DNA from: Tubulanus polymorphus
Taxonomy: Eukaryota; Animalia; Nemertea
NCBI RefSeq assembly: GCF_964204645.1
Contig: NC_134028.1
Span: forward strand, 23,494,345-23,558,344
Reading direction: 5' to 3'
DNA: 64,000 nt
The first letter of the stretch is position 1. Every line of letters starts with the position of its first letter. The translations under genes and the position numbers were made by a program. The notes beneath the pieces are model-generated. The model was not told the DNA's origin and searched no databases. It saw nothing but the letters and a program-made list of their open reading frames with translations. This document shows, one piece after another, positions 38,900-41,566 of the stretch.

Positions 38900-41566
38900 T
38901 TAACGACACATGAATGAACTGATGAAGACGCTTTGATGCGGCGCGATTCTGTCGTCGAGTTCATCGTTATGAGAGTTGATGAAAATATGCGCTAAACCGT
39001 TTCGTCGATGCTTGAAACGAACCTGACTTTTCACCGATTCGTTTTCGATATCCAGCTTCGCCATGTGACTTAGAATTTTACCGACATTCGCGGTTCGTTC
39101 GTCCAATGACGCCGACTGAATTTGATTCAAGTACAGAATTTCGTCCCGGGTTAAACCGTCGTGAACGTTCGCTAATGCGTTTCGACGATAGTTCAAATGG
39201 ATACCGCGCAACACGCTGGATTTAATCCCACGTCGTTTATCCAGATCGACGCTTTTGACGCTCTGTAAATAATTAATCTGTGCGTTCGATAATCCCTGGT
39301 ATATATCGGCGACGGCCTTGCGACGCGACGGTTCACGTTGCGCGCGCTTCGTACGATGTTGTTTCGATAAATCGCTGGGACTTGCCGAACGTGCGGGCGC
39401 TTTCATGTCGTAACAGATTAAATGATTTATTTCTACATTCGATAGTCCGTCGTAGATGTCGGCCATCGCTCCGCGACGTCGGCGTTGCCCAGTTGGTATC
39501 ATTACGCGAGAATTACACCTCATATTCTCACAACTCGGCGATCCGTCGTCCTCATCGAGTTTTTCACGCGTTCGGACATTATTCTGCACACTGTTGATGG
39601 TGAAATGACAAGATATTTCCGTCAATTTTTTTCTCCTTTCTGTCGCCGACAGCGAACTCGTCTTAATTCTCCCGTCGACACTTCGTTTTCTGATCTGACG
39701 GTTTCTTTCATCGACCTAAAATAGATGAATAATTTTGTCAAAATGCAAGGTCCTATAGCAGGGTCCCTACGTATCAGTCATTCCAGAATTAAAGGCATTT
39801 TCAATGAGAAATTTTCAAATATCGAGTAGTGTATGCATCACTTTCATATCTCAATTACTGTCGACACCTCGTAAATCAGTACTGTTTATCTTAGTAAACC
39901 ATTTAATTCGGCGGACTCATCATGTATAATAACTAGGCCAATATCTAAAATTTTCTAATTGCCAATTTCTCAGAATCCAAGGAGTATTCAACGACTTTTT
40001 GGGCATTTTGCTTAAATTCAAGTACCTTGAAAAATATTTTTGGTTTTGAAGGAGTTTTCAAGTAATCAAGGAGTTGTAGTGACCCTGTATAGGGACAAAT
40101 AACGTGATACACCGTGGTCCGGAAATCCCTAAGCGTGATGGGGATTAACCAATAAAAATTACCCGGGATAAAACACATGATATAATCACTCTTGTATTCG
40201 AGAGGTTTTTGTCTTATATTTCTAGTGATTGCATTGTGGATTGCATCTAGGCGCGACAAGCATTGTGTAAACATCGACATTTTCATTCGTCAGAAATGTC
40301 ATGCAAGTTATGCACATTTTGTAAAACACTTTAAAAAACAAAGCTCGTTGCTATATATATATATATATATATATATATATATATATATATATATATATAT
40401 ATATATATATATATATATATATATATATATATATATATATATATATATATATATATATATATATATATATATATATATATATATATATATATATATATAT
40501 ATATATATATATATATATATATATATATATATATAACATATTATATAATATAATTTTTATATAACCAGGAACATATTACATAAAAATTATATAATTTTTA
40601 TATAATATGTTCCTTGTTATATAATATGTTATATGATAATGGTTTATATACATTGAATATGATTGATTTGTATTCGTGTCCAGCTGCAGGCGATGTACAC
40701 TATGTGAAATGTACACTATGTGAAATGATCCATAGAATCTAGTAATTGTCACCGAGTTTTAATTATAGGGCGTTTTGACGCAATCATATTGATGACTAAT
40801 TACTACCGAGTTGAGGTGTGGATCAAGAGTGACAATATGCACCATACTCTAATACATATACCATCTGCTGAGCTAGGAAACATAACCTCAGGCTACTATA
40901 CTGACAAGTGATTTTAGAGATCAATTAAAAGCCAAAATCAATACGAACGATTCGAGGCTATAGAGCCCACGATGAAATGGACGTAAATATTAAGAGAATA
41001 CCTCAATGATAACGAATAGATAAAGGCCGAAATGTATCCTAGAGCTAGTAGTTTATTCGACGTTCGTTTCGACTATATTCTAATAGTCATATTCAGGATT
41101 TTTATGGGATTCGCTATATGTCACAACATGGATATAGTGTCTTACTCCATATATCTTACTCTTATTAATCATTGCAATGTGAAATGGAAGAATTGAAATT
41201 AAGTTAACGAGCGTGAGAAGGTCATTTAAACGGATGAAACATCGGGTAATAAATCTCTTTCGGCTAATAGTATTTAGCCGAAACGTTGCTCAAAATATAT
41301 ACTCTTCTTTTCAAGAATTTGTCATCTTCGACTGAATCAACGTAGGATTTCTCTACATCTACTACATCTACATAGGATACTGCATCTGAACCGCGATCGC
41401 GCGTGTATCTCTCTTCATCTCTTTCACAAAGTGACTAAAAACAATTCATATAGCTTCTACGTACCGAATGGTTACAACTTGTCATCATCAGTGGCAAATT
41501 TCGTAGATGTTCTATCTCATCTTTAGTAAGGTCCTTGTAAATATCGTCTAGAGCGTTTCTCCTCAT
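38900..41566 (-). CDS. Protein (~305 aa) with five PKI-like PKA pseudosubstrate repeats and a PKI-type nuclear export signal
   Basis: Exon 41566-41465 ([21 protein letters not shown]...) splices phase 0 to exon 39715-38900, which contains [32 protein letters not shown] and [10 protein letters not shown]. Additional internal exons are not excluded. Confidence 0.72.
40352..40635. repeat. (TA)n microsatellite (~180 bp) followed by an AT-rich foldback palindrome
   Basis: Pure TA run 40352-40535, then ATAACATATTATATA...AAAAATTATATAATTTTT...TATATAATATGTTAT inverted repeat; lies in the intron of the PKI-repeat gene. Confidence 0.9.
41042..41098 (-). repeat. Second family of Penelope-like/hammerhead-like terminal repeat
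   Basis: Minus strand CCTGAATATGACTATTAGAATATAGTCGAAACGAACGTCGAATAAACTACTAGCTC. Decayed relatives follow the A genes at ~14457, ~20935, ~24077, ~27412 and ~31290. Confidence 0.55.

Follow-up and report, generated by a model that had tools for sequence, protein, structure and literature searches.

Five repeats resembling PKA pseudosubstrates in an uncharacterised protein of the ribbon worm Tubulanus polymorphus

The gene LOC141904259 lies on the minus strand of a 64,000-nucleotide stretch of the Tubulanus polymorphus genome (contig NC_134028.1, positions 23,494,345 to 23,558,344), here called the window, to which all coordinates refer. Its two coding exons encode a protein of 305 aa that equals, letter for letter, an uncharacterised NCBI model (P0001). 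The protein contains five repeats, each starting with a site of the type found in pseudosubstrates of cyclic AMP (cAMP)-dependent protein kinase (PKA). The gene comprises the following features, where X3 and X4 denote two of the runs from which contigs were compared, and PKI, TC1 and PKA-C stand for the protein kinase inhibitor family, a second Pfam family and the PKA catalytic subunit.

41465 to 41566, minus strand: coding exon 1, 102 nt, residues 1-34, start codon at 41566, covered by spliced contigs
39716 to 41464, minus strand: intron with GT-AG ends, 1,749 nt, GT donor at 41464, skipped in the X3 and X4 contigs
38900 to 39715, minus strand: coding exon 2, residues 35-305 and stop codon, AG acceptor, phase 0 join
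38770 to 38899, minus strand: 3' untranslated region, AATAAA at 38785-38780, X3 contig end at 38770
41501 to 41563, minus strand: repeat 1, residues 2-22, RRNAL and helix, Pfam PKI match of 12.7 bits (E 0.16), under the cut-off
39416 to 39478, minus strand: repeat 2, residues 114-134, RRGAM and helix
39263 to 39325, minus strand: repeat 3, residues 165-185, RRKAV and helix, best TC1 match, modelled on PKA-C
39125 to 39187, minus strand: repeat 4, residues 211-231, RRNAL and helix
38981 to 39007, minus strand: repeat 5, residues 271-279, RRNGL, helix degenerate
39047 to 39076, minus strand: spacing as in signals for nuclear export (NES), residues 248-257, class 1a, at chance level and not conserved

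The original prediction, made from the sequence of this locus, had placed an exon outside the open-reading-frame track at 41566-41465 and joined it to position 39715. This exon is already part of the NCBI annotation, and the X3 and X4 contigs agree with the junction: the exon 2 contigs of both runs continue past 39716 with exon-1 letters, while their exon 1 contigs continue past 41463 with exon-2 letters. A single X3 contig of 1,060 nt lacks the intron; it runs from 41578 to 38770, where it stops 10 nt beyond the AATAAA signal. The locus is thus spliced. Both runs come from one sample of one study, and none of the six runs is on record as RNA; contigs were compared for X2-X5 over 38000-40300 and for X2, X3, X4 and X6 over 40600-44200. 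The X2 contigs also covered stretches of the intron, with no exon-exon loose end among the matches listed, and no X6 contig matched 40600-44200. The intron contains a (TA)n tract at ~40352-40535. Upstream of the start codon, a strong donor-like site at 41735 and an acceptor-like site at 41584 on the minus strand suggest a non-coding first exon in a region into which no contig extends. A coding extension was rejected there: although the donor at 41735 and an acceptor before 41584 would hold the frame, translation from the in-frame ATG at 41785 runs into a stop after four codons.

All five sites have the features of a PKI site, namely arginines at P-3 and P-2, a non-phosphorylatable residue at P0 and a hydrophobic residue at P+1, where positions are counted from P0, the phosphoacceptor position of a substrate. 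The five RRx[AG]-hydrophobic sites announced by the original prediction exceed chance, since four or more RRx[AG][LMVI] sites occurred in none of 100,000 shuffles and three sites in 5 of them. The best internal pair of 22-mers scored 69, whereas 300 shuffles gave no score above 41. The helical extension behind the site is common to repeats 1-4 (extension-only scores of 22-41) and is not shared by repeat 5 (-8 to 9), as the four-repeat pattern proposed earlier had it; repeat 5 may be a weak copy. Successive sites are separated by 46-112 residues in the Tubulanus protein and by 36-76 in its relatives. Outside the repeats, RKRSV at residues 43-47 (~39677-39691, minus strand) matches the PKA substrate pattern with Ser46, which could be a candidate site for feedback phosphorylation.

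A folded repeat domain was dropped as an interpretation, AlphaFold2 having yielded no confident fold for P0001 (predicted template modelling score, pTM, 0.19) or for its relative P0008 (pTM 0.16) from shallow alignments of 9-10 rows; in both proteins it places helices at the repeat extensions. Structure matches in the ESM Atlas did not exceed a template modelling score of 0.29 for the whole protein or 0.44 for residues 155-240 and were rejected, and the atlas gave no feature matches. Sequence searches of the PDB returned nothing meaningful, the match to a lectin neck repeat (E 0.003) merely adding up 2-bit pieces.

Among 1.84 billion representatives, a full HMMER scan found four matches: P0001 itself, P0003 (477 aa), P0004 (345 aa) and P0002 (E 7e-7), the last being a leucine-rich-repeat protein that was dropped from the relatives. 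A profile of P0004, P0003 and P0001 brought in P0008, P0009 and P0010. As this profile search scored the 7,993 best-sharing candidates, there are at least five relatives and the family is under-sampled. Word-indexed searches with exon 2 (1 of 430 candidates) and with an alignment of four repeats (1 of 512) found the protein itself alone, and eight pattern matches in viral contigs yielded no confirmed member. Decayed repeats are also visible at residues ~190-215 of P0009 and in the C-terminal part of P0003; they are not counted below.

Repeats were picked in these six proteins by a pattern covering P+2 to P+5, without demanding arginine or alanine. This gave 34 matches and, after removal of one spurious overlapping match, 33 repeats with 3-7 copies per protein; the counts at P+2 to P+5 are therefore partly set by the search pattern, while those for the arginines, P0, P+1 and the helix are free of it. 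Arginine occupies P-3 and P-2 in 33 of 33 repeats each, against a background of 9% arginine, and P0 is alanine in 28 and glycine in 5, never serine or threonine (0/33). P+1 is hydrophobic in 32/33, P+3 is Asp or Asn in 32/33, P+4 is Ile or Val in 33/33 and P+5 is Phe or Tyr in 31/33. Further downstream, hydrophobic residues recur at P+8 (30/33), P+13 (30/33) and P+16 (32/33) and acidic residues at P+11 (22/33) and P+12 (25/33), and the stretch from P+10 to P+20 is amphipathic (0.41, compared with a maximum of 0.37 in 2,000 shuffles). By contrast with this downstream part, no position from P-13 to P-5 is conserved across the 33 repeats, a basic P-6 occurs in 2/33, and repeat 1 sits right behind the initiator methionine and has no upstream region at all.

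When a profile was derived from the relatives without P0001, all five Tubulanus repeats came up in the top two matches among 2,104 frames of the window (E 5.9e-19 and 2e-7), the next match in the six frames having an E-value of 0.038. RRx[AG] is kept in proteins that are motif relatives, their orthology being unproven. The allelic differences in the X3/X4 contigs, at 39304, 39397, 39404, 39406, 39512, 39122 and 41497, leave the arginine, P0 and P+1 positions untouched; they comprise I172V (P+4 of repeat 3), N102K, L24M, two changes in codon 138 and a silent one, and an in-frame insertion of 6 nt is found near residue 141. What the 33 repeats show corresponds to the hallmarks of PKA pseudosubstrates as set out in 10.1101/2021.07.05.451193, and the residues at the P-site of the regulatory subunits RIalpha and RIbeta are given as alanine or glycine (PMC6143667).

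The same core can be read in another way, which the original prediction overlooked. The main rival to a kinase pseudosubstrate is an APC/C (anaphase-promoting complex/cyclosome) destruction box (D-box), with the repeats then being degrons or decoys and the protein a multivalent APC/C substrate or an inhibitor like Acm1 or Emi1. Arginine at D1, alanine at D3, leucine at D4, glycine or alanine at D5, aspartate at D6 and isoleucine at D7 all fit the preferences given in PMC3690534; RxxL is present in 28/33 repeats and RxxLx[DEN][ILV] in 27/33 (positions 1 and 3-7, with N allowed at 6). The resemblance covers core positions 1-7 and breaks down at -1, 8 and 9. The residue at -1 is arginine in 33/33 where the consensus has proline, and D8 is Phe or Tyr in 31/33 where serine is preferred (both PMC3690534), while asparagine at D9 is absent (0/33). 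D3 is never serine or proline, both of which D-boxes accept, and in the Tubulanus protein itself RxxL is present in 3/5 repeats and the full core in 2/5, while the D4 leucine is missing from 2/5. A KEN motif occurs in 1/6 proteins, and not in that of Tubulanus. Nor does a D-box explain the conserved helix that follows in the repeats. We treat the D-box as a serious rival, though an improbable one. A motif for B56, LxxIxE, was found in 3/33 repeats and rejected.

The comparison with known families places the repeat beside PKI without making the protein a member. With the Pfam PKI profile (PF02827, cut-off 25 bits), P0001 scored 7.4 bits, exon 1 12.7 bits and the best relative 17.6 bits, all under the cut-off. 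In the weak matches of P0001, P0004 and P0010, P0 falls on profile position 21 in all three. Likeness to the PKI family beyond the short site, which the original prediction had supposed, was not borne out, neither the upstream aromatic residue nor the P-6 arginine being conserved. In PKI the upstream aromatic stands at P-11 and the arginine at P-6. One description of PKA pseudosubstrates puts the aromatic at P-13 (10.1101/2021.07.05.451193). PKI proteins are described as 70-75 aa long, with a single site, a high-affinity region upstream of it and, at residues 37-46, an NES (PMC7234811). The Tubulanus protein is likewise disordered with an RRxA-hydrophobic site that matches the PKI profile in the same register, but it has 305 aa, five sites, a helix downstream of the site, no conserved upstream region and no supported NES. 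From its sequence it likely works like PKI while standing outside the PKI family.

The export signal was the second half of the original prediction, in which the protein would also carry PKA-C out of the nucleus by a PKI-type NES at residues 248-257. The class 1a spacing is indeed present there, and PKI pairs its site with an NES (PMC7234811). However, a class 1a match arises in 67% of 5,000 shuffles, the whole Tubulanus protein holds seven class 1 matches, in alignments with the relatives the stretch falls opposite unrelated acidic linkers, and a class 1 pattern follows the site in 6/33 repeats. Of the multi-site PKA-C sponge and exporter proposed, the sponge keeps the support of the pseudosubstrate pattern in 33 repeats and of the model of repeat 3 described below; the exporter, whose NES-like match is at chance level and has no counterpart in relatives, is very improbable and forms no part of the best explanation.

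The helical extension had been called novel, which does not hold: site and helix together match the Pfam family TC1 (PF15063, cut-off 27 bits). Three relatives lie above the cut-off, with scores summed over repeats of 38.4 (P0004), 66.5 (P0008) and 45.4 bits (P0009), while P0001 (17.5 bits, E 0.0042) and P0003 (24.5 bits) lie below and P0010 does not match TC1. In 5/6 proteins no Pfam family matches better than TC1. The repeat aligns to profile positions ~21-46, and P0 occupies position 26 in 5/5 matching proteins, as calculated from match ends assuming no gaps, so that a single repeat type appears to touch both the PKI and the TC1 families in fixed register. The part of the TC1 profile matched is ~20-49 of 75 positions, the best stretches ending at 42-49, and the C-terminal part is absent. 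By this measure, taken on the Pfam profile, the Tubulanus protein would be a multi-copy TC1-motif protein, differing from TC1 in that it and its relatives contain the motif 3-7 times, without the remainder of the domain; the TC1 seed may already include invertebrate repeats. P0010 (residues 145-157) carries two TC1-type repeats and one PKI-like repeat, the third, which is the most PKI-like of all (E 0.0047), and on this evidence is a possible bridge between the two families.

Human TC-1 has 106 aa and is reported to occur in jawed vertebrates alone (PMC5349172); it is disordered, with helical segments that include D44-R53, and binds Chibby (PMC3506533). Together with the Pfam matches, this allows the repeat to be seen as a TC1-type motif for a non-kinase partner, as Chibby is for vertebrate TC-1, with the PKA-like site incidental. 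Such a partner would leave the invariant arginine pair and a P-site that is never serine or threonine unexplained, the C-terminal part of TC1 is missing in the relatives and the Tubulanus protein itself is under the TC1 cut-off, which makes this reading distinctly improbable.

To model a complex, the peptide of repeat 3 (residues 153-190) was combined with a PKA-C, ATP and two Mg. The kinase was a stand-in from a metagenome scan for PKA-C that gave at least 118 loci; the one used, L019, has a frame of 352 aa, which is complete and matches mammalian PKA-C alpha with an E-value of 3e-207. Three runs scored 0.59, 0.88 and 0.88, and three controls 0.53, 0.02 and 0.00; contact agreement between runs was at least 64% and the predicted local distance difference test score (pLDDT) of the partner at least 68. 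In calibration, the mark was met by 51/78 solved and 2/108 mismatched microbial pairs, and by 39/65 novel (71/105 in all) and 2/126 unrelated eukaryotic pairs. In the model, repeat 3 occupies the active site of the stand-in PKA-C in the register of a pseudosubstrate. Arg165 contacts kinase Glu172 and Phe131, Arg166 contacts Glu172 and Glu205, and Ala168 contacts Asp168, Gly202 and Thr203. Val169 contacts residues 201-204 and Ile172 contacts Leu200, Leu207, Ile211 and Ile212. The confident interface also takes in peptide residues 175-187 and, on the kinase, 211-214 and 245-254, and from these two residue lists the helix would lie on that surface of the kinase. This we take to be the alphaG region, which regulatory subunits presumably use as well. 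The AlphaFold-type check suggested with the original prediction thus came out in favour for repeat 3 (0.88, compared with 0.53 for the best control), its scope being 1/5 repeats and a stand-in kinase.

Pseudosubstrate sites for PKA-C outside PKI are known from PDE7A1, whose N-terminus holds two (10.1101/2021.07.05.451193), from Smoothened, whose PKI motif uses auxiliary helices for grip (PMC13186710), and from type I regulatory subunits. Those sites lie within an enzyme, a receptor and a cAMP-binding subunit, and in that comparison the helix comes before the site; the Tubulanus repeats are the sole recognisable content of their protein and the helix comes after. Inka1, compared by description only, is a kinase inhibitor whose inhibitory box is duplicated, conservation being confined to the boxes (PMC4674680), but its target is PAK4, it has Pro at P0 and its boxes number two. 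We found no published multi-repeat invertebrate PKA inhibitor, which is weak evidence given a search without most subscription papers.

Taken together, the repeats are probably best read as parts of a disordered, multivalent inhibitor of PKA-C that grip the kinase through the downstream helix, although with considerable reserve, as several points weigh against this. The 33 repeats are not independent, identity being 27% within proteins and 18% between the six of them, and in one P0008 repeat P+1 is Lys. With the repeats masked, P0001 has nothing detectable in common with its relatives, and an N-terminal stretch is common to P0008 and P0009 only, so the five relatives appear to be relatives by motif and are not proven orthologues. 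The upstream aromatic and high-affinity region that gives PKI its nanomolar affinity is not conserved in the 33 repeats. The model is a likeness and no proof of binding: an unrelated 38-mer control reached 0.53 when the first run of repeat 3 had just 0.59, the score may go back to remembered structures, PKA-PKI and PKA-RI complexes having been solved, peptides and disordered chains lie outside the calibration of the complex tool, our own alignments were unused, a single repeat was covered and L019 stands in for the worm's own PKA-C. No full cAMP response element (CRE) was found in the window, and the two half-sites within 500 nt upstream of the start are not enriched, as 30% of comparison stretches reach this number.

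A pass of the model cannot tell which relative of a kinase binds, and close relatives of a true partner would also pass, which is one reason to consider pseudosubstrates of another basophilic kinase (PKG, PRKX/PKA-C3-type or another AGC kinase). Here the helix would set specificity, being a determinant absent from PKI, while the upstream determinants of PKI are missing from the repeats. PKA and PKG preferences overlap. The strict Arg-Arg at P-3/P-2 with a hydrophobic P+1 is, on the other hand, the pattern of PKA inhibitors as far as 10.1101/2021.07.05.451193 and PMC4674680 describe it, and the PKI-profile matches keep the same register, so that we consider a different kinase unlikely.

For the PKA-C inhibitor we infer binding, and with it affinity, stoichiometry and a cellular role, along the following lines. 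Each repeat would fold upon a free catalytic subunit and fill its substrate cleft. Its two arginines would occupy the acidic P-3 and P-2 pockets, the P0 alanine would face the catalytic aspartate with no phosphorylation possible, and the P+1 and P+4 residues would pack against the P+1 loop, all as predicted for repeat 3. The downstream amphipathic helix, predicted for the same repeat on the surface of the large lobe formed by 211-214 and 245-254, may stand in as the grip for the upstream helix of PKI because the repeats have no PKI-type upstream region. A single chain might accommodate four or five catalytic subunits, as the 46-112 residues between sites would in principle allow several kinases per chain, and the protein would then buffer PKA-C independently of cAMP and set the threshold of PKA signalling.

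The window contains the following other genes.

14879 to 17467, 31731 to 34244 and 35644 to 38163, plus strand: three 7tm_2 receptors, 90-93% identical, one long open frame each
27710 to 28150: broken partial copy of a 7tm_2 receptor
41880 to 45980 and 46934 to 50804, plus strand: ionotropic glutamate receptor-like genes in tandem, 86-90% identical, head-to-head with the repeat gene
~11600 to 12000, 18500 to 18850, 21660 to 22000, 24800 to 25140 and 29330 to 29710, plus strand: small gene in five copies, signal-peptide-like start, among the receptors
57672 to 62497, plus strand: exons of an F-box/WD40 gene
6919 to 7284, minus strand: exons of a serine carboxypeptidase

The repeat gene is tail-to-tail with the 7tm_2 receptor that ends at 38163. 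The original prediction had linked this position next to class B G-protein-coupled receptors to cAMP signalling; the arrangement and the 7tm_2 match stood, but the cAMP argument did not, as 3/3 long receptor frames match 7tm_2 alone at a meaningful E-value, neither a hormone-receptor ectodomain of the secretin type nor a GPS domain being detected in these long frames. Their Cys-rich N-terminal part has no Pfam match, and nothing links the neighbouring receptors to the repeat gene. The duplication unit of the ionotropic receptors starts at 41880, ~310 nt upstream of the start codon of the repeat gene. The five-copy small gene may be ependymin-like, but two scanned fragments have no Pfam match. 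An overlapping tandem duplication, 18155-22380 with 21292-25523, is 97.5% identical over 4.2 kb and is either a recent event or an assembly artefact.

Beyond the worm, the TC1 link bears on two human proteins. TCIM and AVPI1 respond to cAMP or Gs stimulation (PMC9346484, PMC12073449, PMC8846505), with log2 changes of +4.1 and +7.0 for TCIM and +1.2 for AVPI1 after GLP-2 analogues in the tables of PMC12073449; PMC9346484 gives gene lists, in which the direction of change was not seen. We found no publication linking TCIM, C8orf4 or AVPI1 to a pseudosubstrate role, which counts for little as most subscription papers were outside the search. We take AVPI1 to be a member of the TC1 family, and the matching stretch of TCIM and AVPI1 presumably starts with an RKxA site, with a polar P+1 in AVPI1. 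A tentative proposal, possible although we doubt it more than we believe it, is that the TC1 motif forms a second class of PKA pseudosubstrate, extended on its C-terminal side and of common origin with the PKI site. Ribbon worms and other organisms would have made kinase sponges of 3-7 sites from it, whereas in vertebrates a single copy would remain in TCIM and AVPI1; these two would then be feedback inhibitors of PKA or PKG that are induced by cAMP and have escaped recognition.

Known direct inhibitors of PKA-C are few, and those described in the papers cited here have one or two sites. If the inhibitor reading is true, five sites on one stand-alone protein, and up to seven in its family, would make a stoichiometric buffer that could set the threshold of cAMP signalling, and a grip by a downstream helix would offer a new template for peptides that selectively inhibit PKA or PKG. 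The TC1 link extends a motif reported as vertebrate-specific (PMC5349172) to a nemertean and makes a cheap test possible for human TCIM and AVPI1. The TC1 family includes cancer-linked human proteins, which, if the likeness of the motif holds, might act on PKA too.

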